The notes: generated from the letters alone by a model not told the origin. A DNA stretch of 64,000 bases from an uncultured Lentisphaerota bacterium (GCA_903896925.1 CAITZM010000134.1:33765-97764); one strand, 5' to 3'. Positions 1 through 19,241 are shown, counted from the stretch's first letter. A program made the numbers and translations.

Positions 1-3000
1 ATAATTCGGTTCCCGCCGTTCGCGCCGCGCGGCCTCCTCCTCTTCCTGGATGGCCTGGCGGGCGGGCTCGTTGATCATGCCGTCGCCCATCTGCTTCATC
101 GTGTCGTAGGTGCCCTTGCCCATGGCCTTGGTCACCGTAAGCGCGGTGTCCAGCTTGGAGTCCGGTGTGCCCGCGCGAACTTTCTCCTGCGCCGCTTGGT
201 TGAGGGCGTCATAATAATTGTTGCGCCACGGCTGGAACCCGCTGGCCTTGTCCACCACGTCCAGCATCTCGTCGCCGCGCAGGTGGCTCCGGCCTTGGTC
301 GGCAGCCTCGCCTTGTTTTTCCACCGTCGCCTGTGCGGCGGCCCCGGCCATGGCGAGGATGCCCAGCTTGTCGAAAGCGCCCCGGATGGGTTCGGCAACG
401 GGTTTGACAAACGAGGACCGGCCGCCATCGAGCAGCGAGGACGGCTTTTTGATGGTGCCATCCGGCAGTTCGATGTTGGCGCCGTTGCCCGTGGGCTTGG
501 TCATGACGTCGAAACGCGTGCCGCGTTCCGTCCCGATCTCGCCCTTTTCCGATCGGGCCATATCCCGGACGCGATCGCGCGACGCCTGAATATCGTCGGA
601 ACTCGCCCGATTCTGGCGCTTGACCTCGTCATCGCTCGTGAACGGCCGCTGGCGGGTCTGGGCGTCCAACGCATCCTTGAAATTCGCGCGCACCGCGTCC
701 CGCACTTCGGCCTTGGAGCCGCTCCAGTCGGAACCCCTGGCGTTCAAGCCCTCTTGCAACGCGATGTCCTCCGCCTTGGCGCGGGCATTGGAGGAGTTCA
801 CGCGGTTGTCACTGGGCGTTTTGTTGAGGGGGCCGCTGACCTTGGTCTTTACCGGAGTGGCGTCTTGCGCCAGCTGCATGGCCTTGTCCATTTCCAGCTT
901 CATCTTGTTGCGCAGGTCGGCCAGATCGTTGCCGGCCGTCCGGGCCTCGGACCCATATTTCACCACCCCTGCTTCGTCAGGTCCGCGATAGCCCTGTAAA
1001 TCCTTGAGCTTCCTGTAAAGCTCCGGATTTTGCTTGTCCAGACCCATGCGCTCACCCGCTTTGGAAACCGCCTTGGCCATTTCCTTGAGGTCGCCATCGG
1101 CCTGGCCGTACAGGAATTTCTTTTGATCATCCAAGACCCAGCCGGTGTCGTTCTTGATCGCATCTTTCACGCCGGTTCCGGCCTTGCCGCCTTCCGTCGC
1201 GAACGCATCCCGGTCGCCCACCTTGTTGCGTTCGGTCAACGCCCTGTCCGGCCGCCAGACCGTCATGTTGTCGGTGTTGTTCACGACCTTGTGAGGAAAG
1301 TCCTGCACATCTTTGCCGGCGGCCTTCCAATCTTTCATTTGCTCGTAAGCGACCTTGTCGCTGGCTGCGGTCACGTCCACATCGCCTTTGACATTGGTGG
1401 GGTTTTTCTTGCCGCCGGTGTTGTACAAATCCTTGGCGTTGCCGGAGGCTTTCAAATCCCGGATGCGATTGTCCTGCGCCGCATATTTTTCCCGGATCTG
1501 ATCGGCCATGGCGCGATGATAATTCTGGAGCTGTTCGGCGGCCCGCGGATCGGATGTGAGCTGCGGATTGTTCCTGGCGAGGTCGTTCATGCGGGTGGAG
1601 AGTGCCTCCAGTTCGGCCTGCTGGCGCCGGATCAATTCCTTGTTCGGGAGTTGCGGCGACCCGCCCGCCGCCACGCCTTGGCCCTGTGCGGGCGCTTGGG
1701 CCGACGAGGCCAGGGGGCGGCCATAGCGATCCACCAGTTGTCCTTGTGCGCCCGCCGTTGCCGCTTCGCCTTGCGAGGAAAGCGGACGACCGGAACGATC
1801 CACCAGTTGCTTACCCGGCTGCACCACCGGTTTGCCGTCGAACGCGATCGGCGTGCCCGTGCCGTCGTAGAAGGGCGGTTTGCCTGCCACAGCCGCTGGC
1901 GCGGGCGGTTGCATGCCTTTCAGCAGATCGATTTTGGGCTGCTTGGAGTTCAGCAGGGCCGTGCCCGATCTGTCCGGCAGTGCGATTGCTTTTTCGCGGA
2001 CCGGCACGATCTGGTCGTGACTGGTCAAGGCCGTGCCGTCGGGCGTCACATAGATCGTATCGGGCGTTCGCGGCAGCGACGTGTTGCCCCGCGGGGCAGC
2101 CGCCCTGCCGGGGGGTGGCGTGCTGCCTTGGACTACCAACGACCGCTCCGGCGGCAGCGTGCCCGGTTCATAGGCGCGGGTCACCGGCACCAAGGCTTTT
2201 TCAAGAGGGATGCCGGATGGCCGCCCGGGAGCGGCGGATGACGCCGTCGGCTGGTGGGGACCGCCCGGCGGTGGCGGCGGCGCGCCTCCGGCCGCCACGG
2301 CCGCTGGCTGGGCCGTCGGCAGACCCGCGTTCACCGCGCCTGCCGAGCCTGACAAGCTCAGGCGACCGGGGCCTCCGCGTTCCACCGTCTCCAGGCCCGC
2401 CCGCGCGACCGTGCCGCGCTCGCCGGTCTGGGCAGAAGTGGTGGCGGCTGGCGTTTGCGACCGGCCCATCCTCTTGTTGTAAGCGTCCTTGATTTCCTTC
2501 ACCCGTTCCGGCGTCGGATCAACGATGACCTCCTTCACGGGCTGGCGGTTGGCATCGAGTGCGATCTGGCCGCTATCGTTTCGGATATAGCGCCAGCTGT
2601 GCATATCGTCCACGCGCCCGTGCGTCGGCTGGCCCTCCAGTTTTCCCACGATGTGCGCCGTGGAGTCGGCGGCCGGATTACCCTCGGTGACACCGCCGGT
2701 CGCACCGGTCTGCCGGTTCAGCCCGAAGGCCGCGTTGATGGGTTCGCCAAATTCATTTTGCACGTTCCGCAACTGGCTGCTGGTGTTGTCGGCGGTTTTC
2801 TTGTTGGCGGCCAGCTGAGCCTGTCGGTTCACCTGCGCCTGTTCGTAATGCTGTTTTTGGCTCTCGATGTTGCGCAGCGCGGCCGTCTCTTCCGCCGGGC
2901 TCAAGCCCAGGTGGCCGGCCTGGATCCGTTCGGCGTAGGCGTCCAGTTTTTTCGCCGCCACGTCCGGCGGCATATAGGCGTCCACCACTTCGGCCTTCAG

Positions 3001-3528
3001 CGCGTTGCCGTCCCGCGCCATCGCGCGCGCCTGGTTCTGCGCGTAGGCCGCCTGTTCCTCCTGCCCCAGCGTTTGCAGGTGCTGGCGCAGTTTCTGCGTG
3101 GACTCCGGCGTCGGCTCCGGCTGGAACGCCCAGCGTTCCTTCGAGTGCCGCTCCCGCAGGGCGGTTTTCTCCTTGCGGAACTCCTGCAACAGATCCTTGT
3201 AGGTCTGCGCGTTCGCGTCCAGCTTGCTCGTAAGCTGCTGATATTTCCGCTGGAGCTGTTGCTCCTCCACCTGGTGCCGCTTGAGCAGGTCGGCGAGCGA
3301 GGCATCCGCCGCGCGGGCCGCGCCGAGCCACAGCCCCGCGCCCAACAGCAGGGCCGCGGCGATGCGGCCGGCATAAGTTTTCCAGGGGCTGGAAGCCCGG
3401 GGTGCGTGTTCTTCCAAGGATTGGGTCAACTCAGCCTGGCCTCTTCCAGTCCTTGGGGAAAGCGCGGGAACGTTTCCCCGAACTTTGGACAACAACCCCG
3501 CAGTCCTGCGACCACACCACGTGTTCAT
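1..3528 (-). CDS. Giant secreted hypothetical protein (>=1176 aa, runs off the left edge); coiled coil, Pro/Ala-rich linker, putative nucleotidyltransferase-like motif
   Basis: Hand translation gives an open frame from ATG 3528 (GGAG upstream) to position 1; the ORF track misses it because there is no stop in the window. Signal-like stretch RIAAALLLGAGLWLGAARA-AD; motif NTGGKKNPTNVKGDVDV at about 1372-1422. Start position uncertain. Confidence 0.85.
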   Translation of the reverse strand, partial: MNTWCGRRTAGLLSKVRGNVPALSPRTGRGQAELTQSLEEHAPRASSPWKTYAGRIAAALLLGAGLWLGAARAADASLADLLKRHQVEEQQLQRKYQQLTSKLDANAQTYKDLLQEFRKEKTALRERHSKERWAFQPEPTPESTQKLRQHLQTLGQEEQAAYAQNQARAMARDGNALKAEVVDAYMPPDVAAKKLDAYAERIQAGHLGLSPAEETAALRNIESQKQHYEQAQVNRQAQLAANKKTADNTSSQLRNVQNEFGEPINAAFGLNRQTGATGGVTEGNPAADSTAHIVGKLEGQPTHGRVDDMHSWRYIRNDSGQIALDANRQPVKEVIVDPTPERVKEIKDAYNKRMGRSQTPAATTSAQTGERGTVARAGLETVERGGPGRLSLSGSAGAVNAGLPTAQPAAVAAGGAPPPPPGGPHQPTASSAAPGRPSGIPLEKALVPVTRAYEPGTLPPERSLVVQGSTPPPGRAAAPRGNTSLPRTPDTIYVTPDGTALTSHDQIVPVREKAIALPDRSGTALLNSKQPKIDLLKGMQPPAPAAVAGKPPFYDGTGTPIAFDGKPVVQPGKQLVDRSGRPLSSQGEAATAGAQGQLVDRYGRPLASSAQAPAQGQGVAAGGSPQLPNKELIRRQQAELEALSTRMNDLARNNPQLTSDPRAAEQLQNYHRAMADQIREKYAAQDNRIRDLKASGNAKDLYNTGGKKNPTNVKGDVDVTAASDKVAYEQMKDWKAAGKDVQDFPHKVVNNTDNMTVWRPDRALTERNKVGDRDAFATEGGKAGTGVKDAIKNDTGWVLDDQKKFLYGQADGDLKEMAKAVSKAGERMGLDKQNPELYRKLKDLQGYRGPDEAGVVKYGSEARTAGNDLADLRNKMKLEMDKAMQLAQDATPVKTKVSGPLNKTPSDNRVNSSNARAKAEDIALQEGLNARGSDWSGSKAEVRDAVRANFKDALDAQTRQRPFTSDDEVKRQNRASSDDIQASRDRVRDMARSEKGEIGTERGTRFDVMTKPTGNGANIELPDGTIKKPSSLLDGGRSSFVKPVAEPIRGAFDKLGILAMAGAAAQATVEKQGEAADQGRSHLRGDEMLDVVDKASGFQPWRNNYYDALNQAAQEKVRAGTPDSKLDTALTVTKAMGKGTYDTMKQMGDGMINEPARQAIQEEEEAARRERREPNY
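3380..3490. repeat. Array of 4 degenerate TTCCA-N5-TGGAA palindromes, 32-bp period
   Basis: Units start at 3380 (ttccaggggctggaa), 3412 (ttccaaggattgggt), 3444 (ttccagtccttgggg), 3476 (ccccgaactttggac). Confidence 0.75.
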
Positions 3529-3628
3529 GGCAACAACTCCTGCGTTTTAAGCGCTCATTCCGGCTTTATTACCCAATCCTACGACTTGATATTCCGCCCG
3601 CGACCGGCCACTTTCAAGTGACTTTTCT

Positions 3629-4231
3629 TCACAAGCCCTGCCGCTGCCGCAGCGCCTTTTCGATGCGTTCGAAGAGGTCGCGATAGGCCTCCGGCAGCTC
3701 CACTTCCACGGCCTGCTCCGCCGGCGGTGCGTGGATGAGCACGCTGCGGCCGCGCCGGTACCACGTGCCATTCTGTTCCTCATGGTAGGACATCGCCGGC
3801 AAGGTGCCGCGCCGGGTCATCACGATCCGCTGGCGGGTCTGGTTCCCGGCGGCCCACGGCTCGGTGTGGATCACGAGTTCCTGCCAGCGCGCCCACTTCT
3901 TCGTCACGTCCTCGTGCAGCCGCGTGGTTTCCTGCCGCGTTCGCAGGTTCAGCTCGCGCTCGTCCTCCGGGCCCAGCGACTCGTTCTTGCGCGCGGTGGT
4001 GGCGCGGATCAGCCCCGCGGGCTTGTCCACCACCTCCAGCTGCCAGCCGGTATCCTGCAGGACGGCGATGGTCGCGGCAAAAACCAGGTCCGTTTTTCCG
4101 GTGAAGATCAACGTCTGCATGGTTGCCCGATCGGCGGGCGGCAGCACCTTGGGCGCCGGCAGGCGGCTGGGCGGCAACTGGCAACCGGTCGCCCCCAGCG
4201 CCACAACGGCCAGCACAATGAGTTTATTCAT
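3629..4231 (-). CDS. Hypothetical lipoprotein (200 aa)
   Basis: Lipoprotein signal MNKLIVLAVVALGATG-C; 15 bp downstream of the FN3 lipoprotein, same strand. Confidence 0.85.
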   Translation of the reverse strand: MNKLIVLAVVALGATGCQLPPSRLPAPKVLPPADRATMQTLIFTGKTDLVFAATIAVLQDTGWQLEVVDKPAGLIRATTARKNESLGPEDERELNLRTRQETTRLHEDVTKKWARWQELVIHTEPWAAGNQTRQRIVMTRRGTLPAMSYHEEQNGTWYRRGRSVLIHAPPAEQAVEVELPEAYRDLFERIEKALRQRQGL

Positions 4232-4246
4232 GGGACTTGCTCCGGC

Positions 4247-7200
4247 TTACTTTTTCGGTTCGGGCGCCGGCACGGCCGGCGGCGTCAGGTCCAGCGGCGC
4301 GCCCCGCGCGCTCTCCAACTTCTCCGCGTCCACCGCGCTGACCAGCACCCGGAGGCCCTTGCCGACCGCTTCGGCCGTCAGCATGTACGCATTCGTCTCC
4401 ACGGTCGCCAGAGGGTCGGCGCCAAACAAGGTTTTTTTCCAGACCTTGTAAACCTTGATGTCCGGCGAGGGCGAAGCCGCCCACGTCAGCGTGACCTGGT
4501 TTTCCTGCCACTGTGCCACCAGGTTTTGCGGTGCGACCGGCAGCGGCCGCGAGGCCCCCGCAGCCACCTCGCTCCAGACGCTCTCCAGTTCGTCGCGATC
4601 CACCGCCTTGACGCGGTAGCAGCGCGCCTCGCCGTCGCTGAGCCCGTCTTCCACGGCGCTCACCCGCTCGTCGGCCGTGGCGCTGACGCGCGTCACTTCG
4701 CGAAAGCGGCTGGCAGGCGCGGCGGCGGCCTCGAGCACGTAGCAGGCGATATCGCTCTCGGGGTTCGCGCGCCAGGCGAGCCGCACGGCCTTCGGTACGC
4801 CCGCCGTCGCCGCCAGGTCGCGTGGCACGGCCGGCGCGGGCTTCGTGGTGGCCGCCGCCTCGGCCGAGGGTGCGGAGCGCACCTGGGCCGTGTTGAACGC
4901 GACGACCCGATAGCGGTATTCCGCCCGGTCCTGCAACTGGCCGAGCCCCTTGCGTGCGCCGCCCCGGTCCATGAAGGAAACCGTCTCGCGGCCGGCGACG
5001 CTGGCGAGGTTGGTGCAGGCGCTTTCGCCGGGCGCCTGCCGCAGGATGTCGTAGCCGATGACCTTCTCGTCGGGCGAGGCCTCCCACGCCACGGGCACCT
5101 CGCGCGGCCGCGCGCTCTGTGCCTTGACCCCGGTCACCGCCGGCGGCGCGCCGCGGGTCACGGCCTGTGCGCTCTCCGAGTCCGCGCTCTCCGACGCGAC
5201 CGCGTTGACGGCGCGGATCCGGTAGGCGTAGGCGCGCTCGTCGCCGAGGTTGCCGGGGTCACCGCCGCCGTCGAGGAAGCTTGTCTTCGCGCGCCCTTCG
5301 ATGCGCGCGATCTTCTCGAACGCCCGGTCGGGTGCGTCGCGGCGGAAGAGGTCATAGCAGACGACGTCGGCCTCCGGGCTGGGCGACCACGTCAGCGGTA
5401 CGCAGCGCACCTCGGCGTTTTTCGCGGCCAACGTGCGCACGACCGCCGGCGGCGGGCGTGTTGTCACGTCCACCGGAGCGGAGGCCGGCCCGACCGCGCC
5501 GAGCTTGTTGACCGCGGTGATGCGGTAGAGATACTTCGTGCTGTCGCGCAGTTCGGACTGGGGCGTACCACCCTCCTGGAAGACGGGCTCCTTCACCTCT
5601 GCCAGCTTCTTGAACTGCTCCGGGGTGGCGGCCTCGGCGCGTTCCACGATGTACTTCGCCACCCATTCCGCCGCCGAGGGCTTCCACATCAGGCGCACCG
5701 CGCGCGAGGCGCACGCCTCCGCCTCCACGCCCGCGGGCGGCGCGGGTGGCGGCTGCGTCGTCACGGCGACCGGACGGGACGGCGCGCCGACCGAGCCCAC
5801 GCGGTTGATGGCCGTGAGGCGATACAGGTATGGCGTGTTGTCCTGCAGGCCGGTCTTTTCCGTGCCGCCCTCCTCGAAGACAAGGTCTTTGACCTCGCCG
5901 AGCTTGACGAACTTATCCGGCGCGCCGGCCTCGGCGCGCTCGACGATGTATTTCACCACCCCCTCGCTCGGCGAGGCGTCCCACGTCACTTTCAGTTTGC
6001 GGGGCGCGCTCGGCCCGGCCTTGAGCTGGGGTGGCGGCTCTGGCGGTGGAGCGGTCAGCGCCTTCGCCGGCGCGCTGGCGTCGCTCTCGCGGCCGTTTGC
6101 CGCCAGCGCCACGAGCCGGTAGAAATAGGTTTTCGTATCGCCCAGCGGCGCCTGGGCGAGCCCGGTATCGCGATATTCGCCATCCCCGGGCGAAACCTTG
6201 GCCACGATGCCAAAGGGTTCGTCGGCGGCATCGGCGCGCTCGAGCCGGTAGTGCTTCGCATTGTCGTCCGGCTTGTGCCAGCGCAGCACCACTTCGCGCA
6301 GGCCGTTGGTCGTGGCGGTCAGCGCCTGGGGTACCGGCGGCGGCGGCTCGTCGAGTTCCAGCGGCACGCCCGGCAGGCTCTCCAGCCCGTCGGCTTCGAC
6401 CATCGTCAAGGTGACGACCAGTCTTTTCCCGACATCGCCAAAGCGCAGCACGAATTCCGGCTTCGCAGTCTCGGCGAGAGGCTCTTTGCCGCCTTTTTTC
6501 CAGACGCGGTAGGTCGTGACATCCTTCTGTGGCGGGGACCAGGCGAGCTTGATCTCGCCGGGGCTGTACTCCACGGCGACCTTGTCGGGCGCGGGCGGCA
6601 GCGGCTTGGTGTGCGCCGCGACCGGCACGGACCATGGGCCGGGGAGCGCGGTGTCGTTGAGCGCCCTGACGCGATAGCGGTAGGTGAAATCGTCCTTGAG
6701 CGCCCCGAGTCCGGCCGCGTCCTTGGCTGTGCCGCGGTCCGCATAGGCCACCGTGTCGCGTCCGGCCATTTTGATGAATTCCAGGAACGGCCCATCGGCG
6801 CCCTCGCTGCGCTGGATTTCATAGGTCAGCACCGTCACGTCCGGCGTGGCCTGCCACGCCAGCCGGACCTCGCGCGGCAGACTGGAGGCGGCCTGCACAC
6901 CGGCGACTTGCGGCGGCGCACCGCGCGTCTCCGCCTGCAAGGTGACCGCCTGCACACTCGCCACGCCGACCGCATTGATGGCGCGGATCTGATAACGATA
7001 GGCGGTGCCATCGGGGAGCTTTTCGTCCTTCCAGGTCGTCGTGTTGCGCCCTTGCACCGTGGTGAGCGGTGCGAACTTGTCATCCTTGTCCTTTGCGCGG
7101 ACGATGTCGTAGCGCACCACGTCCTCCTCCGGGCTGGCCTTCCACGTCAGCGGCACGCACCGCAGCGCGCCGGCGGCGGCGGCGGCCTGCACCGGCAGCG

Positions 7201-8500
7201 GCGGCGGCCGCGTCGCGACCTGCACCGGCGCGGCGGGCGCACTCTGCGCGCCGACGCGGTTGACCGTTGTCACGCGGTAGGCATAGGTCGCGCCGTCCGC
7301 CGTGGCGGTCGTGTCGCGAAATTCCGCCTTCTCCGCCGTCCCGGCCTTTTCGAACGCCGCCTTCGCGCCCGGCCCGGCGCGTTCCACCAGATAATGGGCG
7401 ATGCCTTCCGCCACGGCAGGCTGCCATACGAGTTGCACCACGCGCGCCGCGGGCGCCGTCACGCGCAGGTTGGTCGGCGGCTCCGGCGGCGGGGCGGTCA
7501 GGCTCTCCTTGACCTGCGACGGCGCACTCTCGACCCGGTCGGACAGGGCCACCACCCGGTAGAAATAGGCCGTGCTGTCCTGCAGCGGTTTCCCGCGTTC
7601 GCCGGTGTCGTGAAACTCGCGTTTCTCCGCGGCGATCGTCCCCAGCGCGGCGAACGGCCCCTTGACCGTGGTCGCGCGCTCGATGCGATAGTCGAGCCCG
7701 CGCTCCTTCGGCACGCCCCAGGTCAGCATGACTTCGCGCAGGCCCAGGTCGGAAACCTTGAAATCCGGCGGCGCGAGCAGCGGCGCGCTGGAGGCCCGGG
7801 CCGGCGCCGGCTCGCCCGCGCGCCCGGTCGGGGCGGGGGTTGGGGCGGAGTTGCGGCCGACGGGCTGTTCTGGTGGCGCCCCGTCGCCCTTGCGCCCCGC
7901 GCCCGCGGCCACCGGCTGCACGTGCCAGTGCGTGTACAGGCCGGCGACGATCTCGTGCGCCACCGCGCGCGCCTGCTCCGGCAGCGTCAGGGCTTTGGAG
8001 TCGGCGCGTTTCGCCAGGTCCGAGCTCCACATCACCTTGCCGCTGGCGCAGTCGATCAGCCGCGCCGTGATGCCGACCACCGGGTAGGGATGCCCGCTCT
8101 GCGCCACCGTCGCGTATTCGTCCACGGTGCCGATCACCACGCCCTCGGCACCCAGCATGTTGCCGACCTCTGCCGCGCGCGCGGCGGACAGGCCCGCCAG
8201 CGAGAGTTCGGATTCGCTGAGCACCTTGGCCATCTGGCCGCGCTCAACGAGTTCGTAACGGCCGGCCCGGAGCATCTCGGTGACGAACAGGTCGGAGATC
8301 GAGGTGCCGATGAGTTCCGTCTGCGCCTTGAACGGCATGATGGCGATCTTCCTGATGGGGGAGGGCACCGGCGCCACGTAGATATTGGCGCGCGACGCCA
8401 CATCGCGGAAATAGGCGTCCTGCTCCGTCGTGGCGCAACCCGCCAGCCAGAGCGCGAGCGCCGCGCCGCACACCACCTGCTCAACTCGTGACTTCATCAT
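4247..8500 (-). CDS. Lipoprotein with N-terminal CsgG/HfaB/LpoB-like domain and 12 fibronectin type III domains (1417 aa)
   Basis: Lipobox LAGC; KIAIMPF...YELVERGQM...LGAEGVVIGTV...ARLIDCASGKVMW is CsgG-like; repeated VxLxW...YxIER...YxYRVxAxN...S blocks; GGAGG RBS. Confidence 0.9.
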   Translation of the reverse strand: MMKSRVEQVVCGAALALWLAGCATTEQDAYFRDVASRANIYVAPVPSPIRKIAIMPFKAQTELIGTSISDLFVTEMLRAGRYELVERGQMAKVLSESELSLAGLSAARAAEVGNMLGAEGVVIGTVDEYATVAQSGHPYPVVGITARLIDCASGKVMWSSDLAKRADSKALTLPEQARAVAHEIVAGLYTHWHVQPVAAGAGRKGDGAPPEQPVGRNSAPTPAPTGRAGEPAPARASSAPLLAPPDFKVSDLGLREVMLTWGVPKERGLDYRIERATTVKGPFAALGTIAAEKREFHDTGERGKPLQDSTAYFYRVVALSDRVESAPSQVKESLTAPPPEPPTNLRVTAPAARVVQLVWQPAVAEGIAHYLVERAGPGAKAAFEKAGTAEKAEFRDTTATADGATYAYRVTTVNRVGAQSAPAAPVQVATRPPPLPVQAAAAAGALRCVPLTWKASPEEDVVRYDIVRAKDKDDKFAPLTTVQGRNTTTWKDEKLPDGTAYRYQIRAINAVGVASVQAVTLQAETRGAPPQVAGVQAASSLPREVRLAWQATPDVTVLTYEIQRSEGADGPFLEFIKMAGRDTVAYADRGTAKDAAGLGALKDDFTYRYRVRALNDTALPGPWSVPVAAHTKPLPPAPDKVAVEYSPGEIKLAWSPPQKDVTTYRVWKKGGKEPLAETAKPEFVLRFGDVGKRLVVTLTMVEADGLESLPGVPLELDEPPPPVPQALTATTNGLREVVLRWHKPDDNAKHYRLERADAADEPFGIVAKVSPGDGEYRDTGLAQAPLGDTKTYFYRLVALAANGRESDASAPAKALTAPPPEPPPQLKAGPSAPRKLKVTWDASPSEGVVKYIVERAEAGAPDKFVKLGEVKDLVFEEGGTEKTGLQDNTPYLYRLTAINRVGSVGAPSRPVAVTTQPPPAPPAGVEAEACASRAVRLMWKPSAAEWVAKYIVERAEAATPEQFKKLAEVKEPVFQEGGTPQSELRDSTKYLYRITAVNKLGAVGPASAPVDVTTRPPPAVVRTLAAKNAEVRCVPLTWSPSPEADVVCYDLFRRDAPDRAFEKIARIEGRAKTSFLDGGGDPGNLGDERAYAYRIRAVNAVASESADSESAQAVTRGAPPAVTGVKAQSARPREVPVAWEASPDEKVIGYDILRQAPGESACTNLASVAGRETVSFMDRGGARKGLGQLQDRAEYRYRVVAFNTAQVRSAPSAEAAATTKPAPAVPRDLAATAGVPKAVRLAWRANPESDIACYVLEAAAAPASRFREVTRVSATADERVSAVEDGLSDGEARCYRVKAVDRDELESVWSEVAAGASRPLPVAPQNLVAQWQENQVTLTWAASPSPDIKVYKVWKKTLFGADPLATVETNAYMLTAEAVGKGLRVLVSAVDAEKLESARGAPLDLTPPAVPAPEPKK

Positions 8501-8889
8501 GCCTCCCGCCTACGGATCAACCTTACAGGCCGAGTTATCATCCGAAACGCCGCGGTCGTAAGCAAGCGCTTTCCGCCGCCCGGGCGCTTTTCTCGGGGTC
8601 CGGCGTGTTGCCCGGTTGCTGCGCCGGCGGGTTTGCGGACAGCGTCCCCGGCTGAGGTCGGGGACCGCCGGTGGTTTCCCGTTGCGTCAAATAGAAACGA
8701 CACCGAAACGGCGCGGACTGCCGGAGCCTGTTGCGTCATAATGATGACACCAAGGGGGATAGCCTCTGGCGAGGAGGGACAGATGGAAGAAGCGTACGCT
8801 TGGCACAGCGGTTTCGGCTTCGCGCCTTTGAAAAAGCTGTTTCTGGAGGGGCAAGGCTGTTAGAGTCCGCGAAAATTCGGAGTCATACA

Positions 8890-10449
8890 ATGGAAAAACA
8901 ACATGGTTGGGGCGGTCCGCCGCCGGTGCCGGGTATGGGGACGACGCCGTCACGCATGAGCCGCGGGCTGGGCTGCGCGGCACTGGTCGCGCTGCTCGCA
9001 GTCGCCGTGGTTTTGGGGCTGCCGGTCTGGGTCTGGTTCTGGTGGCGCATCGAGCCGGGCGCGGACGAGATCGCTGTCATGATCCGCAAGACGGGCGAGA
9101 ACCTGCCGTCGGGCGAAATCCTCGCGGTGCAGCCGGGGCAGAAGGGCCTCCAGCTCGACGTGCTGACGCCGGGCGGGCGCTATTTCAAGAATCCCTACAC
9201 CTGGGGCTGGGAACTGGTGCCCGTCACGGATATTCCGGCGGGCAAGCTGGGCGTGCAGACGCGGCTGTTCGGCAAGGATTTGCCGCCGGGCCAGATCATG
9301 GCGGCGAAGGACTCCAAGGGCATCCTGCAGGAAGTTCTGGGCCCGGGCAAACACTTCGTCAATCCCTTCGCCTATCAGGTGCAGATTGTGGACGCGATCA
9401 ACATCCGGCCGGGCTGCGTGGGCGTGGTGACGCGATTGGTCGGCAAGGATCCGCTGACCGACGGCCTGCCGGTGGAGCAGCGCAATACGTTCATCGTCGG
9501 TGCGGGGCTCAAGGGCGTGCAGGCGGAGGTGCTCGATCCGGGCACGCACTATCTGAATCCGTATCTGGTGAACGTGATCGAGGTGAATCTCCAGAGCCAG
9601 CGCTTTGAGCTGAGCGGCGAAGACGCGATCAATTTCCTGACGATGGATGGCTTTACGGTCCACGTCGAGGGCACGTTCGAGTTCGCGCTGATCCGCGAGC
9701 AGTCGGCGCTGCTGTTGCACCAGGTGGGCGACATGGAAGACATCATCAAGAAGGTCATCCTACCTCGCGCCCGCGGGTTCAGCCGCATCGAGGGCAGCAA
9801 GAATCCGGCGCTGAACTACATCGTCGGCGAGATGCGCCAGCAGTTCCAGGACAACCTCGAGAAGCACCTGCGCGAGACGTGCAAGGCGTCGGGCGTGGCG
9901 ATCAAGTCGGTTTTGATCCGCAACATCACGGTGCCGGAGCAGATTGCCAAGATCATCCGCGAACGCGAGGTGGCCAAGCAGACGGCGAAGATGTACGACC
10001 AGCAGATCGAGCAGGCGAAGTCAAAGGCCGAACTGACGAAGCAGGAAATGCTTGCGCAGCAGAACGAGGAAAAGGTGAAGGCCGATACGCTCGCGCTGCA
10101 GGCGACGATCCTCGCGAAGCAGGAACAGACGGTGAAACTGACCGCGGCCGCCCAGGGCCTCGCGGTGGCCAAGCTCGAAAACGACGCCGCCGTGGCGCAG
10201 GCGGCGGCGATCATCGCCATGGCCGGCGGCGACCAGGCGGTCGTGCAGTATAACAACGAGGCCGAGGCCGCGGTGTTCCGCAGCCAGGCGACCGCGTTCG
10301 GCAGCGGCTTGAACTACGCCAAGTACCTGTTCTACCAAAAGGTCGGGCCGCGCATCGAAACGATCCTGACCACCGACAAGGGCGATGGGCTCGGCGCGCT
10401 GTTCCTGCCCTACATGCCGGCCGCGCAGCAGAAAGAGGTGGCCAAGTGA
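8890..10449 (+). CDS. SPFH/Band-7 domain membrane protein 1 with three N-terminal beta repeats and C-terminal coiled coil
   Basis: TM helix; 3x (KG.Q..VL.PG..F.NPY) repeats; SPFH core (INFLTMDGFTVHVEGT...SVLIRNITVPEQI); A/E/K/Q-rich tail. Start moved from 8731 to ATG 8890. Confidence 0.85.
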   Translation: MEKQHGWGGPPPVPGMGTTPSRMSRGLGCAALVALLAVAVVLGLPVWVWFWWRIEPGADEIAVMIRKTGENLPSGEILAVQPGQKGLQLDVLTPGGRYFKNPYTWGWELVPVTDIPAGKLGVQTRLFGKDLPPGQIMAAKDSKGILQEVLGPGKHFVNPFAYQVQIVDAINIRPGCVGVVTRLVGKDPLTDGLPVEQRNTFIVGAGLKGVQAEVLDPGTHYLNPYLVNVIEVNLQSQRFELSGEDAINFLTMDGFTVHVEGTFEFALIREQSALLLHQVGDMEDIIKKVILPRARGFSRIEGSKNPALNYIVGEMRQQFQDNLEKHLRETCKASGVAIKSVLIRNITVPEQIAKIIREREVAKQTAKMYDQQIEQAKSKAELTKQEMLAQQNEEKVKADTLALQATILAKQEQTVKLTAAAQGLAVAKLENDAAVAQAAAIIAMAGGDQAVVQYNNEAEAAVFRSQATAFGSGLNYAKYLFYQKVGPRIETILTTDKGDGLGALFLPYMPAAQQKEVAK

Positions 10450-12263
10450 AAAAATCACTTCTCGCAATCGTGGCGTTGATGGTGTTCGTGATCTTCGGCC
10501 TGTGGCTCGTCTGGGAGTGGGGCTTCTGCCGCTTCTATGTGCCGGTGGGTCACATGGCTGTGATCATTGCCAAGGCCGGTGCGCCGTTGGAGCCCGGTCA
10601 GATCCTGGCCAAGCAGGGCCAGCAGGGTGTGCAGGAGGATGTGCTCGGCGAAGGCCGGCATTTCCTGAATCCCTACTATTATGAGCACACGATCGAGCCG
10701 GTGATCAGCATCCCTCAGGGCAAGGTGGGCCTCGTCACCGCGAAGGTCGGCCGCGATCTGCCGCAGGGTGAATTTCTTGCCAATCAGGGACAGAAAGGCA
10801 TCTGGCGCGGCGTGCTCGGCCCGGGCAAATACCGCATCAACCCGATCGGTTATCAGATTGACCCCGTGGACGCGATCTCGATCCCGATCGGCTACGTGGG
10901 CGTGGTCACTTCGCTTGCGGGCGAGAAGGCGCCGGAAGGCCAGTTTGCCGGCGCAAACCAGAAGGGCATCCGCGAGGATGTGCTCCAGCCCGGCCTCTAC
11001 TACGTCAACCCGAAGGAGTTCAAGGTGGACATCCTGGAGGTGGGCATCAACCAGGTCTCGATGCTCGGCAAGTCGGGCAGCGCCGTGATCACGAAGGGCA
11101 ACATCGTCTCGCAAAACGCGGCGATGAATACGCTCAACTACAAGGCGCTGGAGACGCAGTACGCCAACCGCGCCAAGGAAATCGCGGAGCAGGGCGCGCA
11201 GGTGCAGATGGCGCAGCAGGCGGATGTCCAGCAGGAGCGCGGCAGCTTCGATCTGCTGGGCGCGTCGCGCGCGCGGTCGGCCGGCGCCAACGCCCAGAAG
11301 CGTCAGCAGGCCGCCAACGCGCCCGGCCCGCAAGCGGCGGCACCCATGGCCCAGCCGTCCAGAAAGCCGCGGCAGGGCGACCTGCAGCAGCAGAACCCGA
11401 CGTTCGTGCTCAACCAGTTCGTCGAGTTTCCCTCGCGCGACGGCTTCGAGGTCAGCCTCGACATGACGGTGGAGTTCGAGCTGTTGCCGAACAAGATCCC
11501 GACCATCTACCGCGACTACGGCGACCTGCCGGCGGTGGTGGACAAGATCATCATGCCGAAGATTCTCTCCATCTCCCGGCTCAAGGGCTCGGCCTACAAG
11601 GTCACCGAGTTTATCGTCGGCGAAGGCCGCGAAAAATTCCAGACCGACCTGACCGATACCTTGAAGAAGAGCCTGGCGGAGAAAAACATCATGATCCACA
11701 ACGCGCTCATCCGGCACGTCAATGTCCCCGATGAGATCATCACGCCGATCCAGCAGGCGAGCGTGGCCGTGGAACAGGACCTGACGAACCAGGAGAAGCA
11801 GAACACCGCCAAGAAGTTGGGCCTGCTCAACACACAAACCAGCATGATTGACCAGCGCGGCGCCGAGGTCACGCAGCAGACCGCCGCCCTCAAGGCCACC
11901 ATCAAGGCCGACCAGGAGAAGGCCGTCGCCGAAATCCAGGCCGAGACCATCAAGCAGACCGCGCTCATCGAGCAGCAGACCGCGGAAATCAGCGCCAACA
12001 AAACCAAGACGCTCGGCAAGGCCGGCGCCGACAAGATCGCGATGGTCGAGGGCGAGAAGGCCAAGGGGTTCCAGCTCAAGGCCACCGCGCTCGGCGATCC
12101 GCAGGCCTACACCTTGGCTGAACTGGCCAAAAGCCTGAACCCCGATGTGCGCGTCAACATCCTGCACGCCGGCGAGGGCACGCTCTGGACCGATCTGGAG
12201 AAGGCGCGCCTCGGCGATCTCGGCGGCGCGAAGCTGCTGGGCAAGCCCGCGGCGAAAAAATAA
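10446..12263 (+). CDS. SPFH/Band-7 domain membrane protein 2, same architecture plus Q/A-rich insertion
   Basis: GTGA overlap with paralog 1; three repeats; FPSRDGFEVSLDMTVEF...ALIRHVNVPDEI core; coiled-coil tail. Confidence 0.88.
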   Translation: MKKSLLAIVALMVFVIFGLWLVWEWGFCRFYVPVGHMAVIIAKAGAPLEPGQILAKQGQQGVQEDVLGEGRHFLNPYYYEHTIEPVISIPQGKVGLVTAKVGRDLPQGEFLANQGQKGIWRGVLGPGKYRINPIGYQIDPVDAISIPIGYVGVVTSLAGEKAPEGQFAGANQKGIREDVLQPGLYYVNPKEFKVDILEVGINQVSMLGKSGSAVITKGNIVSQNAAMNTLNYKALETQYANRAKEIAEQGAQVQMAQQADVQQERGSFDLLGASRARSAGANAQKRQQAANAPGPQAAAPMAQPSRKPRQGDLQQQNPTFVLNQFVEFPSRDGFEVSLDMTVEFELLPNKIPTIYRDYGDLPAVVDKIIMPKILSISRLKGSAYKVTEFIVGEGREKFQTDLTDTLKKSLAEKNIMIHNALIRHVNVPDEIITPIQQASVAVEQDLTNQEKQNTAKKLGLLNTQTSMIDQRGAEVTQQTAALKATIKADQEKAVAEIQAETIKQTALIEQQTAEISANKTKTLGKAGADKIAMVEGEKAKGFQLKATALGDPQAYTLAELAKSLNPDVRVNILHAGEGTLWTDLEKARLGDLGGAKLLGKPAAKK

Positions 12264-12338: not shown

Positions 12339-12863
12339 ATGACAGGTCAAACAGCAGCGCTGGTTTTCGGCGGCGGCGCGGTGGTGCTGGTCGGCAGCAT
12401 CACGGCCTATTACGTCGCCCGCTATCTGCGCGGCAGCATCAAGCTTGTGCTGCCCCAGGGTTCCTTTGCCGCCGGCGAAGCCATCAGCGGCGAGTTCGAT
12501 GTGCTCACGCGCAAGGAAATCCAGGGCCAGCGCCTTTATGCCGCGCTCATCGGCATCGAGGAAACCGAGGAGCGCCATGGCGAGCAAACCCGGAAGCGCT
12601 CGCGCGAAGTGCATCGCCACGAGCTGACGCTGGAGAAGGCCCTGACCTGGCCCGCCGGCCAGACGAAACACTACACCTTCACGCTGCCTTCGCCCTCCGC
12701 GCCCGCGCCGGAAATACTCAGCTCGACCGTGGTCCGCGCCGCGCAGATCGGTTTGGAGTTGCTCGGCGCCAACCGGCGCCGGATCCGGTGGGCTGTTGAG
12801 ATTCGCCTGGATGCCAAGGGCATCGACCTTGCGGCCAGCCGGCGCGTGCACATCAACGTTTGA
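12339..12863 (+). CDS. Membrane-anchored arrestin-N/Spo0M-like beta-sandwich protein
   Basis: N-terminal TM; GEAISGEFDV...LYAALIGIEE...YTFTLP...WAVEIRLD pattern; GGGAG RBS. Confidence 0.6.
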   Translation: MTGQTAALVFGGGAVVLVGSITAYYVARYLRGSIKLVLPQGSFAAGEAISGEFDVLTRKEIQGQRLYAALIGIEETEERHGEQTRKRSREVHRHELTLEKALTWPAGQTKHYTFTLPSPSAPAPEILSSTVVRAAQIGLELLGANRRRIRWAVEIRLDAKGIDLAASRRVHINV

Positions 12864-13026
12864 GGCCTGTCCGTGGGGGGCCGTCGGCCCTCCGTTGGGC
12901 GCCGATCCGACCGTACGGCGGGGCTTTTACAAGCAGGGCCGGAGGGGGCTGTCCGCCGGTTAGGGTTGCCGGCCGCGGCGTGTTTTGGCTTCCCTTGGGC
13001 ACGGGTTCCGTGTTTCATCCGACACG

Positions 13027-13929
13027 ATGTTTGCTCCCCTTGTTAAAATGATTTCGCGCCGGCTGGCGCGTCTGTCGCGTCCGGGGCTGCTGCGCTGGGG
13101 CGCCGGGCTCGGCTGGTTTTTTGGACGCGTGGTCCGCTTCCGGCGCGCCGCGGCCCTCGTCGCGTTGCGCCGCAGCCTGCCGGAACTGTCGGACGCCGAG
13201 GCCAGCGCCACGCTCGACGGCATGTACCGCAATCTGGCCCTGAACATCCTCGAGATCATGCGGATGTACGGCGGCGCCACCGAGGAGCTGGACCAGCTCA
13301 TGACCATTGAGGGCGAGGAGATTGTGCGCGCCGCCTTGCAGCGCGGCCGCGGTGCCATGATCCTCACCGCGCATCTGGGCAACTTCGACCTGCTGGCCAT
13401 GTTCGCCGCACACCGCCACTACCCCCTGACCATCGTCTCCAAGAAGCTCAAGAATGCGACCGTGAACCAGATCTGGAGCACATTGCGCGAACGCTTCGGC
13501 GTCAACATCCTCTTTGTGCACAATGCGGCGCGCGGGTGCCTCAAGGCGCTGCGGGCGAACGGCCTCGTGGGTTTCCTGCTCGATCAGAACCGGCCGCTGT
13601 ACCAGGGCGTGTTCGTCCAGTTCTTCGGGCAGACCGCCAGCACCTCGCCGGGGCTCGCGGTGCTGGCCGCGCAGGCCCAGGCGCCGGTGATCCCGGTCTT
13701 CATGTCGCGCCGCCCGGACGGCACGCACCACCTGCAGATCCTGCCGCTGATCGAGCCGCCGCCCGACCGCGAGCCGGCGACCATCCTGCGCTACACGCAG
13801 ATCTATACCACGGTCACCGAGCGCGCGATCCGCCAGCATCCCGACCAGTGGACGTGGATCCACCGCCGCTGGAAAAACAAGCCCCTGCCCGGCGACGCCA
13901 TCGCCACGCCGGAGCCCGGCTCTGTCTGA
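13027..13929 (+). CDS. Lipid A late acyltransferase (LpxL/HtrB family), copy 1
   Basis: GRGAMILTAHLGNFD, LLDQ, VFVQFFG, IRQHPDQWTWIHRRWK. Confidence 0.9.
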   Translation: MFAPLVKMISRRLARLSRPGLLRWGAGLGWFFGRVVRFRRAAALVALRRSLPELSDAEASATLDGMYRNLALNILEIMRMYGGATEELDQLMTIEGEEIVRAALQRGRGAMILTAHLGNFDLLAMFAAHRHYPLTIVSKKLKNATVNQIWSTLRERFGVNILFVHNAARGCLKALRANGLVGFLLDQNRPLYQGVFVQFFGQTASTSPGLAVLAAQAQAPVIPVFMSRRPDGTHHLQILPLIEPPPDREPATILRYTQIYTTVTERAIRQHPDQWTWIHRRWKNKPLPGDAIATPEPGSV

Positions 13930-14037
13930 AGGTCCCTGTTCGTAGATGCCTGTGCACCTGCGGCTACGCCGGTCCGTCGCGGCCGGTATTCATTTTTTTC
14001 TTCCCTTCGGCGCTGGTCCCATGTTTCATCCGCGGGG

Positions 14038-14949
14038 ATGCTTGGTGTTTTCGTCAACGTATTGGCGCGTGGCTTGGCGCGGCTGTCGCGCCCGGCCTCG
14101 CTGCGTTTGGGTGCGCGGCTCGGCTGGTTCTCCGGCCATGTCGTCCGCTATCGCCGCGCCACAGCGCTTGCCGCCCTGCGCCGCAGCCTGCCGGAGCTGT
14201 CGGAGGCCGAGGTCCTCGCCACGCTCGACGGCATGTACCGCAACCTGGCCACCAACCTGGTCGAGATTTTGCGCGCCGAGGGCGGTGTGGAAGATCAGCC
14301 CGCCGACTTTTTCAGCTACGATGGCGAGGAGCGCATCGCCGCCGCGCTCGCGCGCGGTCACGGCGCGCTGATCTTGTTGGCGCACTACGGTAGCTGGGAG
14401 CTGCTCGCGATGTTCGCCGCGCAGCGCGGCTATAAACTCCACATCGTCGCCAAGAAATTCAAGAATGTTGCGGTGAACCGGTTGTGGAACCGGCTGCGCG
14501 AACGCTACGGCATCAAGGTGATTTATGCGCATAACGCCGCACGCCCGGTCCTGCGGGCGTTGCGCGAAAACGCCCTCATCGGCTTCATGCTCGACCAGCA
14601 CCGGCCGCGCGCCTTGGGCAAGTTCGTCACGTTCTTCGGCCGGCCCGCCAACACCTCGACGGGTCTCGCGATCCTGTCCTCGCAGGCGCAAGCTCCCGTG
14701 ATTCCGGCCTTTATCATACGTCGCGCCGATGGCGGACATCAAATCCGCGTCCTGCCGTTGATCGAGCCGCCGCCCGACCGCGAGCCGGCGACCGTCCTGC
14801 GCTACACCCAGCGCTACACCACCATCATCGAAAACGAAATCCGCGCGCAGCCCGCCGAGTGGCTCTGGATCCATCGCCGCTGGAAGACCCAGCCGCAGCC
14901 CGGCGATACGGTCGCCACGCCGGAGCCCGCCGGCCGGGACCCGGTCTAG
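14038..14949 (+). CDS. Lipid A late acyltransferase (LpxL/HtrB family), copy 2
   Basis: GHGALILLAHYGSWE, MLDQ, FVTFFG, IRAQPAEWLWIHRRWK. Confidence 0.9.
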   Translation: MLGVFVNVLARGLARLSRPASLRLGARLGWFSGHVVRYRRATALAALRRSLPELSEAEVLATLDGMYRNLATNLVEILRAEGGVEDQPADFFSYDGEERIAAALARGHGALILLAHYGSWELLAMFAAQRGYKLHIVAKKFKNVAVNRLWNRLRERYGIKVIYAHNAARPVLRALRENALIGFMLDQHRPRALGKFVTFFGRPANTSTGLAILSSQAQAPVIPAFIIRRADGGHQIRVLPLIEPPPDREPATVLRYTQRYTTIIENEIRAQPAEWLWIHRRWKTQPQPGDTVATPEPAGRDPV

Positions 14950-15207
14950 GTCAAAATCCTGGATCCGCGGCAGCGGGTCCGCGCCGGTGGCGGGGCCAGG
15001 GAACCCTTGGTCTTTCCCGCAGGAAAAACAATCCACGTGTTTCGCCCAAGCCCTGGAAACCCCGAAAAATCGGGCGTCGTATCAGCTGCGCGCACCGCCG
15101 GACGGCCCCGGACGGGGCAAATTCCGGGATTGCATTCTAGCCAGCGGGTGCTACAACAGCTCGGGCAGTAAATCCCGCCCCAACCGTTTTTCACGGAGAA
15201 AGAGAAC

Positions 15208-16101
15208 ATGGAAACAGAAGCGAGTACTGGCGTACCGGTCATCAGTGTGAAGCGAACCTCCACCCACAAGATCATCAACGATCTCGTCCAGCTGCAGGAA
15301 TTGCTCGTGGCGCGTGCGCAGCAGGTTGCCACCAATCCGCAGGCGCGTCTGGAGCAGCTCGAGCAGTCCATCCAGACCCTCTTCCAGTCGCTGCCGCCGG
15401 ACATTGCCGGGCGCTTCAAGCGCATCGAGGAGCGCGGTCCGCTCGCGATCGTGCCGATCGCCAACGGCATCTGCAGCGCCTGCGGCATGTCCCTGCCGGT
15501 CAGCCTGGTCCACACCGTGCACGCGGCCGAGAGCCTCTACCAATGCCCGAGCTGCGGGCGCATGATCTATTACCGCGAGGCGTTTGCGCGGCGCGTCCGC
15601 CAGCCCACCGCCAAGCGCGGTGAGCCGCCGAAAATCGGCATCGAGCGCTTTTCGTCGCAGGAGCTGATGATCCCGCAGCTCGTCTCCGGCGAACGCGACG
15701 ACGTGATCCGCGAGCTGTGCATGAAGCTGGAGCACGAAGGCTTCGTGGACGACGGCAACAAGCTCTACGAGGAGGCGCTCAAGCGCGAGGCGATCGTCGG
15801 CACCGGGGTTGAGAACTGCCTCGCCTTCCCGCACGTCCGCGGCGTTGAGGGCGGCGGCCTGACCCTGGCGCTGGGCCTGTCGGCCAAGGGCGTCAAGTTT
15901 GGCAGTAGCTCCAAGGGCACGAGCAAGATCATCTTCTTCATGGCCATCCCGACCGCGGCCAGCGCGTTCTACCTCAAGCTGCTCTCCGGCCTCGCGCGGA
16001 CCTTCGAGAAGGAAGAGAACCGCAAGAAATTGTTGGAAGCGACCACGCCGGAGAAGCTGTGGAAGACGCTGCTCAAGCTCACCAAGACCACGATCCAGTG
16101 A
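15208..16101 (+). CDS. C4 zinc-ribbon / PTS EIIA (Ntr/Fru-type) fusion protein
   Basis: CSACGM...CPSCGRMIY zinc ribbon after a coiled coil; KREAIVGTG..LAFPH EIIA motif. Confidence 0.85.
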   Translation: METEASTGVPVISVKRTSTHKIINDLVQLQELLVARAQQVATNPQARLEQLEQSIQTLFQSLPPDIAGRFKRIEERGPLAIVPIANGICSACGMSLPVSLVHTVHAAESLYQCPSCGRMIYYREAFARRVRQPTAKRGEPPKIGIERFSSQELMIPQLVSGERDDVIRELCMKLEHEGFVDDGNKLYEEALKREAIVGTGVENCLAFPHVRGVEGGGLTLALGLSAKGVKFGSSSKGTSKIIFFMAIPTAASAFYLKLLSGLARTFEKEENRKKLLEATTPEKLWKTLLKLTKTTIQ

Positions 16102-17246: not shown

Positions 17247-17254
17247 CGAGATCT

Positions 17255-17720: not shown

Positions 17721-17765
17721 ATGGGTTGAAGTGCTGGGAAGTTGGCCGCCTGCTGACGAACGCAG

Positions 17766-18899: not shown

Positions 18900-18930
18900 G
18901 TCGCGCCGAGCCTAAACTTTTCCCGCAGTT

Positions 18931-18976
18931 TTCCAAGGCTCGGAAACAATAACGTGGAACTTTCCAGACCTTGGAA
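18931..18976. repeat. Two TTCCA-N5-TGGAA palindromes, 31 bp apart
   Basis: ttccaaggctcggaa (18931) and ttccagaccttggaa (18962), just upstream of bioF. Confidence 0.7.
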
Positions 18977-19177
18977 GTCCCAGCGTGATAGCATCCGGAG
19001 AAGGGAAGCGATACGCGCCGGCATATGGACAGCACTCCCGCTGGAGCGGTGTGCACCAAAGCGGACGCGCCTGTTGATCAGTGCCAGCCGGGCGACGGAC
19101 ACACCGTCTCATACCTGTACAGGTGTGCGATGGGGTAGTGGAACTACAGCAGACCGTGCAGCAGCTTGGAGCGATGA

Positions 19178-19240: not shown

Positions 19241-19241
19241 G

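Follow-up and report, generated by a model that had tools for sequence, protein, structure and literature searches.

Two questions are raised by the left end of a 64,000-nucleotide stretch of DNA from an uncultured Lentisphaerota bacterium (positions 33765-97764 of contig C134 in the genome designated G000; the whole stretch is hereafter the window): whether the uninterrupted minus-strand frame that fills its first 3,528 nucleotides is a gene, and whether the very large protein that it would encode carries a nucleotidyltransferase (NTase) domain of the Pol-beta superfamily beyond the cytoplasmic membrane. The frame proves to be part of a gene for a protein of 2161 amino acids (aa), referred to here as the giant protein. 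The explanation that best accounts for the data, probable though some way from secure, is that this protein is an exported cargo of an envelope operon and bears an NTase-like domain able to transfer nucleotides. That its residues 628-895 constitute an NTase-like domain on an exported protein can be stated with moderate confidence, and the earlier description of this domain as unannotated is accurate, since none of the family libraries searched annotates these residues and no curated family or source-given name covers them.

Within the window the frame runs for 1176 codons and exits through the left end (it is flagged '3open'). An earlier, sequence-only reading had described a minus-strand frame of at least 1176 codons missing from the open reading frame (ORF) track, and was right on both points; the omission arises because ORF lists without open-ended frames leave out such a frame. 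When the contig was extended leftward, as that reading had proposed, the ORF was completed at 2161 codons (positions 12808-19293, minus strand, of the extended locus, L002), its left end lying at position 30807 of contig C134. Two protein homologs, P0003 (2142 aa) and P0004 (1962 aa), are 70% and 57% identical to the giant protein, respectively, as measured over the searched stretch of residues 640-1420, of which 97-100% is covered, and by this comparison of protein sequences the minus strand is confirmed as the coding strand.

It could nevertheless be argued that so long a frame is a non-coding artefact of DNA rich in guanine and cytosine (GC), and the motif within it a chance match. GC content in this stretch is 57-74%, a pattern of the form G[GS]x9-13DhDh (h, hydrophobic) arises one or more times in 6% of the shuffled versions of the 1176-aa part and, when the whole protein is shuffled, in 14%, and long shadow ORFs are present here: a 1586-aa open frame at window positions 3731-8491 on the plus strand, antisense to the operon gene for a lipoprotein with CsgG and FN3 domains, has no Pfam match and is not a gene but a shadow ORF such as high-GC DNA produces. 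Set against this are the two homologs and 63 remoter ones with the domain, confident AlphaFold2 models, a conserved gene order, a start codon with a Shine-Dalgarno-like site, and the finding that ORFs antisense to the giant region have no Pfam match. The homologs and the synteny already refute the artefact, and we consider its probability vanishingly small. A scan of window positions 1-9000 against Rfam found no RNA family.

Support for the domain begins with the family to which it belongs. An exhaustive phmmer search, in which residues 632-1420 of the giant protein were compared with 1.84 billion cluster representatives, identified 63 proteins at E <= 1e-3, including 38 at E <= 1e-10, and the stretch common to them corresponds to residues ~630-930 of the giant protein and contains the proposed NTase motif. 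In most of these proteins the domain occupies residues ~40-350 of a total of 1000-1300, directly behind the signal peptide. Source names retrieved for family members by cluster look-up were 'hypothetical protein' only; none of the 39 family matches scanned has a Pfam domain at the NTase-like stretch, and a Pfam search of 8 further proteins with the domain gave nothing informative.

The sequence-only reading had based its assignment on the strings LYNTGG (aa 701), DVDV (aa 716) and NNTDNMTVW (aa 750), all of which are found at those positions. Weak evidence by itself, because shuffled sequences contain the pattern as often as noted above, the motif rises above chance because it is conserved in homologs. 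In an alignment of the giant query with 62 homologs (counts refer to sequences with a residue in the column concerned), G705 is present in 53/53, the next residue being S (44), G (8) or T (1); D716 is present in 53/54 and D718 in 53/54, plus one E, with V717 between them in 35/54 and a few members reading D-G-D. Beyond this G[GS] and DhD part of the signature, which is thus conserved, D774, G780 and G796 each occur in 63/63 sequences and G781 in 62/63; K804 (62/63), K819 (61/63), K823 (61/62), W758 (61/62) and Y847 (57/60) are nearly as constant. The third acidic part of the signature did not stand in the same way: column 754 is D in 56/61 family sequences, but the giant query, P0003 and P0004 read T-D-N in place of the family's T-T-D, the Asp being shifted by one residue (D753, N754).

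Structure prediction places these residues in a setting familiar from NTases. AlphaFold2, supplied with the 63-row alignment, modelled residues 621-960 with a predicted local distance difference test score (pLDDT) of 89.7 and a predicted template-modelling score (pTM) of 0.81, and the trimmed stretch of residues 660-895 with values of 94.8 and 0.90. A long helical hairpin leads into a strand ending T-G-G, a 13-residue loop and a strand starting D-V-D-V-T, after which follow a helix, three short strands, the linker bearing D772, D774, G780 and G781, and a four-helix bundle. In the trimmed model the DhD motif lies at the start of strand E58-62, and column 754 just precedes strand E96-99. In the Pol-beta NTase fold, according to Kuchta et al. 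(2009; PMC2794190), hG[GS] starts a short second core helix, [DE]h[DE]h lies on the second core strand, and a third carboxylate, h[DE]h, lies on the adjacent third strand. Measured against that description, the domain has the G[GS] motif and the DhDh on strand 2 but lacks the short second helix: no second core helix is predicted, and DSSP assigns coil to the 13 residues between strands 1 and 2 in both models.

Among the rows listed by Foldseek against the PDB, 21/42 for the first model and about 31/38 for the trimmed one are NTase-fold proteins, drawn from at least 10 families that include NF90/NF45, Cid1, GLD-2, TUT4, TUT7, PAP/Pla1, CCA enzymes, HalB, CdnD, CdnE and ANT(4''). Pairwise comparison with VIA-align matched the core to a CCA enzyme (3wfr; Z 6.6, 74 residues aligned, root-mean-square deviation (rmsd) 3.5), Cid1 (4nku; Z 6.5, 98 aligned), 4wby (Z 6.0, 74 aligned, 20% identity), GrpB (2nrk; Z 5.8, 83 aligned), URT1 (6l3f; Z 5.7, 82 aligned) and LnuA (4wh5; Z 5.3, 78 aligned, rmsd 2.5), and matched the bundle to HEPN proteins at Z 6.2-7.2. 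The best two-domain match of the model is the aminoglycoside adenylyltransferase AAD(9) (6xz0), aligned over both domains (Z 6.1, 163 aligned, model residues 26-226 against chain residues 5-254). The outcomes that the sequence-only reading had named as refuting an NTase were not observed: the G[GS] and DhD residues are conserved in homologs and the predicted fold is NTase-like, with match scores under the tools' trust lines. The domain is likely to be a true, very divergent NTase fold.

Several observations weigh against the assignment. None of the chains compared reached the VIA-align trust line of Z >= 8 and no Foldseek match that of E <= 1e-3 (the best row, NF90/NF45, has an E-value of 0.076, and the template-modelling score is about 0.2); trimming the model hardly raised the fold scores. 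On the same sheet, beta-alpha-beta-beta-beta modules of extradiol dioxygenase and bleomycin-binding proteins score Z 5.3-5.6, and on the helical part a vinculin tail, p130Cas and a designed cage score Z 6.8-7.2, equal to HEPN. The short second core helix (alpha2) of the NTase fold is not predicted, the residue before the invariant Gly is T (44) or S (9) and not hydrophobic as in hG[GS], and the spacing from GS to DxD, nine residues in the giant subfamily, is seven in most members, below the x9-13 rule on which the assignment was first based. The candidate third carboxylate of the giant subfamily, as described above, reads D753-N754 and not T-D. Sequence profiles are equally unforthcoming: Pfam yields no NTase family at E <= 1 for the whole protein or at E <= 10 for 19 domain members; the family profile matches only coiled-coil proteins among PDB sequences; PF01909 matches three other loci of this genome and not the giant gene; and hhalign of the family with the genome's three minimal NTases is non-significant (probability 0.2%). 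A single hhalign alignment does place TG-S..DvDl on FGS..DVDL in register, but at that same non-significant 0.2% it is not counted as support. Searched as a whole against Pfam, NCBIfam and PDB sequences, the giant protein gives sub-threshold noise only (HypA, PerC, alpha-xenorhabdolysin A, zinc ribbons), and the ESM Atlas gave no usable match. Lastly, the supply of nucleoside triphosphates (NTPs) outside the cytoplasm is doubtful.

These same observations lend weight to the main rival explanation, in which the domain is a non-catalytic scaffold or a metal- or ligand-binding module (for Ca2+, for example), a pseudo-enzyme or generic alpha/beta sandwich within a structural envelope or surface protein. 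Middling fold scores shared with unrelated modules, the missing profile link, the missing alpha2 helix and the doubtful use of NTPs would all be expected of such a module; NF90/NF45, the best Foldseek row, has the NTase fold but no catalytic activity; many columns conserved in the family are altered in the giant subfamily (754 D>N, 793 D>N, 849 D>G, 860 D>S, 868 K>D); and the protein outside the domain is low-complexity, repeat-rich and predicted to be helical. What such a module leaves poorly explained is the retention of near-invariant G705, D716 and D718, together with invariant Asp, Gly and Lys residues, among sequences only 23-37% identical, which is the pattern of an active site; the motif, moreover, falls exactly on the strand-loop-strand where NTases bear it, and NTase-fold proteins of many families dominate the match lists. 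On balance we judge such a non-catalytic module unlikely, and favour an NTase-like domain, for which catalytic activity is an evenly balanced proposition.

Two other identities were considered and set aside. DxDxT is the motif of HAD phosphatases and is resembled by DVDVT, but no hydrophobic residues precede it here, and the listed fold matches include no HAD or Rossmannoid chain, an observation that falls short of exclusion. The HEPN superfamily features a conserved R-x4-6-H motif. No such motif is conserved in the columns of residues 763-895, where H807 (38/62) is preceded by N801, E802 and K803 with no conserved Arg at the corresponding spacing. As a separate observation, a canonical minimal NTase of 111 residues is encoded elsewhere in the window (about 49910-50242, minus strand; PF01909, 25.4 bits, above cut-off; LFGS...SDFDV); it served as a comparison sequence and is unrelated to the domain of the giant protein.

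Comparison with known systems helps to define what the domain resembles. The aminoglycoside and spectinomycin NTases (AAD(9)/ANT(9), ANT(3'')(9), ANT(4'), ANT(6), LnuA) have the same two-domain layout, an NTase core followed by a helical bundle, and the G[GS] and DxD motifs in common with it; besides the AAD(9) structure 6xz0 (Z 6.1), 6sxj and 7uy4 match at Z 5.3 and 5.0. Sequence similarity to these enzymes is, however, undetectable, and the present family differs from them in being predicted to be Sec-exported and embedded in proteins of 1000-2300 aa, in the shorter GS-DxD spacing of most members, in having no predicted alpha2, and in its extra invariant residues D772, D774, G780, G781 and G796, which no search revealed as features of a known family. 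RNA NTases (Cid1, TUT4/7, URT1, GLD-2, CutA, poly(A) polymerase, CCA-adding enzymes) provide the best core matches, including the preceding helix, and dominate the Foldseek lists, but the match does not take in their second domain (PAP-associated or central) as a unit; they work in the cytoplasm or nucleus on RNA 3' ends, and nothing here suggests an RNA substrate. In MNT-HEPN systems (MntA-HepT) the bundle finds matches in 2hsb (Z 7.2/6.8), 1o3u (Z 6.7) and MntA-HepT itself (6m6u, Z 6.4), and the core matches minimal NTase-like folds, yet generic four-helix bundles score equally on the bundle; the bundle of this family has no R-x4-6-H, hhalign to the genome's own MNTs is non-significant, and the two parts are here fused and exported and do not form a cytoplasmic toxin-antitoxin pair. 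Weak, too, are the matches to the N-domain of GlnE (1v4a; 210 residues aligned, Z 5.2, model 3-265) and, for the helical part, to the Legionella effector DrrA/SidM (6yx5, Z 5.2). GlnE and DrrA transfer AMP to protein tyrosines, and DrrA is a secreted effector; by comparison, no translocation signals of known effector systems are seen in the giant protein, and its operon context is one of envelope lipoproteins and not of a host-delivery secretion system.

The sequence-only reading had called the protein modular and exported, with a signal-like N-terminal region, and each of these descriptions is supported by what was found: the giant protein has only one strongly hydrophobic segment, at its N terminus (aa 56-74; KD19 1.65), and a signal-peptide-like hydrophobic segment precedes the domain in 47/47 N-terminally complete members, as judged by a simple hydropathy rule and not by a trained predictor. 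Some members also contain domains of extracytoplasmic type (PKD, CarboxypepD_reg, PEGA, SpaA-type, and PASTA just above cut-off). Judged by such N termini, the giant protein is presumably exported by the Sec pathway. The domain family would be a novel, highly diverged branch of a known superfamily, confined to exported proteins and set within an undescribed envelope system, the link to the superfamily's fold being held, on predicted models, with moderate confidence. Among metagenome loci recovered with six canonical members as queries (GC 0.46-0.72), the family extends beyond the present class; one such member (L098:120-4748, plus strand; GC 0.53) carries its PASTA domain at residues 899-961 and has a Macro-domain gene 1.5 kb downstream (L098:6296-6784, plus strand).

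A consistent genomic context accompanies the domain. In G000 the same-strand order is a 1417-aa CsgG-FN3 lipoprotein, a 200-aa lipoprotein, the giant protein, secreted proteins of 404 and 555 aa with CxxC ribbons, a 267-aa CsgG-like lipoprotein, a 316-aa lipoprotein and a 372-aa secreted protein; more generally, the order is a CsgG+FN3 lipoprotein, one or more large proteins, in some cases the 200-aa lipoprotein, a small CsgG-like lipoprotein, a lipoprotein of ~300 aa and a secreted protein of ~340 aa. The 267-aa protein (L002:9283-10086, minus strand) matches PF03783 above cut-off (E 6.1e-14), and relatives of the 200-aa lipoprotein are 41-45% identical in related operons and 79% within the same genus. 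In a sample of the phylum, 3/3 domain matches sit in the CsgG-like lipoprotein operon, and in genomes G386 and G281 the CsgG-FN3 gene is followed by the gene with the NTase-like domain, the ~300-aa lipoprotein (57-59% identity) and the ~340-aa protein (41-42%). A class-wide search with a profile of the domain found it in 23/401 genomes (13/246 of those of high quality). Operon partners adjoin the gene in 13 of the 23; one further genome has a partial operon and one a divergent operon, 5 have contigs too short to reveal the context, and the remaining 3 have no partners, the domain there belonging to another kind of large protein, in its C-terminal half. One point tells against a general association: outside the class, the one locus with a usable downstream flank (L098) has no recognisable operon partners.

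A search with the lipoprotein recovered 35 loci, from records titled Verrucomicrobia, Kiritimatiellia, Lentisphaerae, Victivallales and Opitutia together with two Desulfobulbus. In nearly all of them the lipoprotein gene still has the small CsgG-like gene and that of the secreted protein for company, and only 8/35 have the NTase-like domain upstream. What recurs is the tail of the giant protein (residues ~1820-1930, often extending to a Cys-rich ribbon at ~2035), found in 27 large ORFs at 24/35 loci with or without the domain. By sequence, therefore, the large proteins of the operon have a common C-terminal tail and differing front ends, the NTase-like domain being one of these.

It is against this background that the proposal of an exported effector or toxin, made by the sequence-only reading together with the suggestion of a small downstream immunity gene, has to be weighed. 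The domain would then act inside another cell, AMPylating a target or synthesising an alarmone, and a cognate immunity gene would lie nearby. The protein is indeed predicted to be exported and is very large and modular, tandem paralogs occur in several genomes (G544, G200, G638, G149), and Tas1, CapRel and MenT are among the weak fold matches (Z 5.1-5.4). NTase-fold toxins do exist, RelA/SpoT-like toxin domains being reported in a survey of polymorphic toxins (PMC3482391). Yet the domain is the conserved part of these proteins, N-terminal or mid-protein and in most members just after the signal peptide, and it is the C-terminal regions that vary. In polymorphic toxins it is the trafficking stem that is conserved and the C-terminal toxin domain that varies, the reverse of this family. 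In G386 and G281 the gene downstream of the domain gene encodes the conserved ~300-aa lipoprotein, in G000 secreted proteins with the shared tail are encoded there, and no small gene specific to the domain was found in any of these three genomes; the downstream lipoproteins are 53-83% identical across loci and are present too in the 27/35 loci without the domain. PADLOC returned only LmuB, on 94-aa repeats of the giant protein, which is read as coiled-coil noise. The proposal is not supported, because the domain is conserved and not C-terminal, has no specific small gene and is followed by genes that occur without it, and we regard a toxin as improbable.

We therefore return to the giant protein as a large cargo or component of a conserved envelope operon of Kiritimatiellia-type Verrucomicrobiota, and a mechanism can be sketched for it. 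The common tail may dock to, or be sorted by, the lipoprotein machinery, and residues 628-895 would be one of several exchangeable front ends, of a family found in exported proteins only. The conserved carboxylates could hold Mg2+ and an NTP in the cleft between core and bundle, and a nucleoside monophosphate might be passed to a hydroxyl on some acceptor, protein or glycan, in the envelope or outside the cell. Such binding and transfer are proposed because the layout is that of the aminoglycoside NTases and the acidic and basic residues are invariant. For the lipoprotein machinery the nearest known counterparts are the CsgG (curli) and PelC-type lipoprotein rings, two operon proteins matching PF03783 (E 1.9e-11 and 6.1e-14, both above cut-off). 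Unlike that of curli, the cargo is giant and mostly low-complexity, repeat-rich or predicted-helical, and is not amyloid-like by anything tested; CsgA, CsgB, CsgE and CsgF did not turn up in Pfam scans of the operon ORFs, no search having been aimed at them. In its boldest form, the proposal is of an as yet unrecognised, exclusively extracytoplasmic and catalytically active branch of the Pol-beta NTases, displayed or exported by an undescribed CsgG/PelC-like lipoprotein apparatus that reads the common tail on interchangeable giant cargo; this we regard as rather unlikely.

Were the domain an active NTase, the family would be working outside the cytoplasmic membrane, in a setting not expected to host NTP-dependent chemistry, and would offer a first enzymatic handle on an undescribed envelope operon of Kiritimatiellia-type bacteria, a group of uncultured or little-studied organisms. 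Should the active, extracytoplasmic branch be real, bacteria of this group would carry out nucleotidylylation outside the cytoplasm, on targets in the envelope or the extracellular space. The modularity of the giant-protein genes, with their common tail and exchangeable fronts, also marks out the operon as a candidate system for sorting or anchoring. Phrase searches of the literature, by which absence is not shown, returned no secreted, periplasmic, extracellular, exported or extracytoplasmic nucleotidyltransferase and no 'periplasmic AMPylation', nor any paper joining CsgG-like proteins with Verrucomicrobia or CsgG with Kiritimatiellae, and none of the papers that they did return deals with the present domain or operon.

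Features of the giant gene and its immediate surroundings (window positions; residues numbered in the 2161-aa protein)
Feature	Position	Strand	Basis
First 1176 codons of the 2161-codon ORF	1..3528	-	ORF read; homologs P0003, P0004
AGGAG, ribosome-binding-like (Shine-Dalgarno-like) site, 8 nt 5' of the ATG at 3528	3537..3541	-	Read directly
Signal-peptide-like hydrophobic segment (aa 53-75), ending ...IAAALLLGAGLWLGAARA/A, behind a 52-aa N-terminal extension	3304..3372	-	Hydropathy
Pro/Ala/Gly-rich linker region, aa 400-625	1654..2331	-	Composition
QLVDR[SY]GRPL, two copies 23 aa apart, aa 574-606	1711..1809	-	QLVDRSGRPL at aa 574 (1809), QLVDRYGRPL at aa 597 (1740)
Domain conserved in the family (aa 628-895), made up of a helical hairpin, NTase-like alpha/beta core and four-helix bundle	844..1647	-	63-sequence family, AlphaFold2, fold searches
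NTase-like alpha/beta core, aa 684-762	1243..1479	-	AlphaFold2 strands; CCA-adding enzyme, Cid1, URT1, LnuA, GrpB at Z 5.3-6.6
T704-G705-G706, G[GS] motif; family consensus T-G-S	1411..1419	-	Alignment
D716-V-D718, DhD motif, start of second core strand	1375..1383	-	Alignment and AlphaFold2 model
T752-D753-N754, candidate third carboxylate site; family consensus T-T-D	1267..1275	-	Alignment
Linker (D772, D774, G780, G781 invariant) leading into the four-helix bundle (K804, K815, K819, K823 conserved), aa 763-895	844..1242	-	Alignment, AlphaFold2
200-aa lipoprotein gene directly upstream of the giant gene, lipobox ...GATGC	3629..4231	-	Recurs in related operons
1417-aa lipoprotein, N-terminal CsgG domain and FN3 repeats, first operon gene	4247..8500	-	PF03783 E 1.9e-11, fn3 E 8e-52, lipobox

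Outside the NTase-like domain, the sequence-only reading had also proposed a coiled coil, which would occupy aa ~76-270. The Pro/Ala/Gly-rich character of the linker is borne out by its composition (23 P, 12 G and 16 A in the 100-aa block from residue 401), and the repeat spaced by 23 aa lies where it had been placed, in two copies only; it occurs in P0003 and is absent from P0004. The region at aa ~900-1490 includes a second conserved stretch, common to a few homologs (P0011, P0021, P0057, P0058), and is followed by three 94-aa repeats at aa ~1504-1780 (TRF period 282 nt, 2.6 copies, 85% match; L002 14043-14781), the operon-shared tail, a Gly-rich stretch and a Cys-rich end with CxxC pairs.

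Among the neighbouring genes, those for the 404-aa and 555-aa secreted proteins lie directly downstream of the giant gene (L002:9864-12795, minus strand; G000:C134:27863-30794) and encode 2-5 repeats of a zinc-ribbon-like unit, CPKHGKYGG...CPRCK; the 404-aa protein shares the giant's tail region (blastp, 31% identity, E 2.6e-9, against residues 1814-1966), and the closest relative locus, L008, has three genes of this kind. Over its N-terminal 180 residues, the 1417-aa CsgG-FN3 protein has 71% identity to the short CsgG-like lipoprotein of 267 aa, and long and short CsgG-like genes are both present in most related loci. At four loci, L083 (G200:C67), L076 (G544:C32), L073 (G638:C164) and L085 (G149:C12), two genes with the NTase-like domain stand in tandem before the same lipoprotein genes. 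A remoter form of the domain (E 1e-33 to 1e-38) occurs at L088, L089 and L090 (G591, G359 and G607, respectively), at residues ~900-1400 of proteins of 1600-1800 aa that have no Pfam match and no operon partners visible nearby. DNA near-identical to window positions 700-3528 is present in lake-water metagenome runs of one study (sampled words: X1 0.96, X2 0.90), with no RNA run among the matching runs listed. Finally, a pair of neighbouring SPFH/Band 7 genes, encoding proteins of 572 and 605 aa (window 8731-12263, plus strand), adjoin the operon, and an SPFH gene is likewise found near the operon in G386 (L006 9692-11263).

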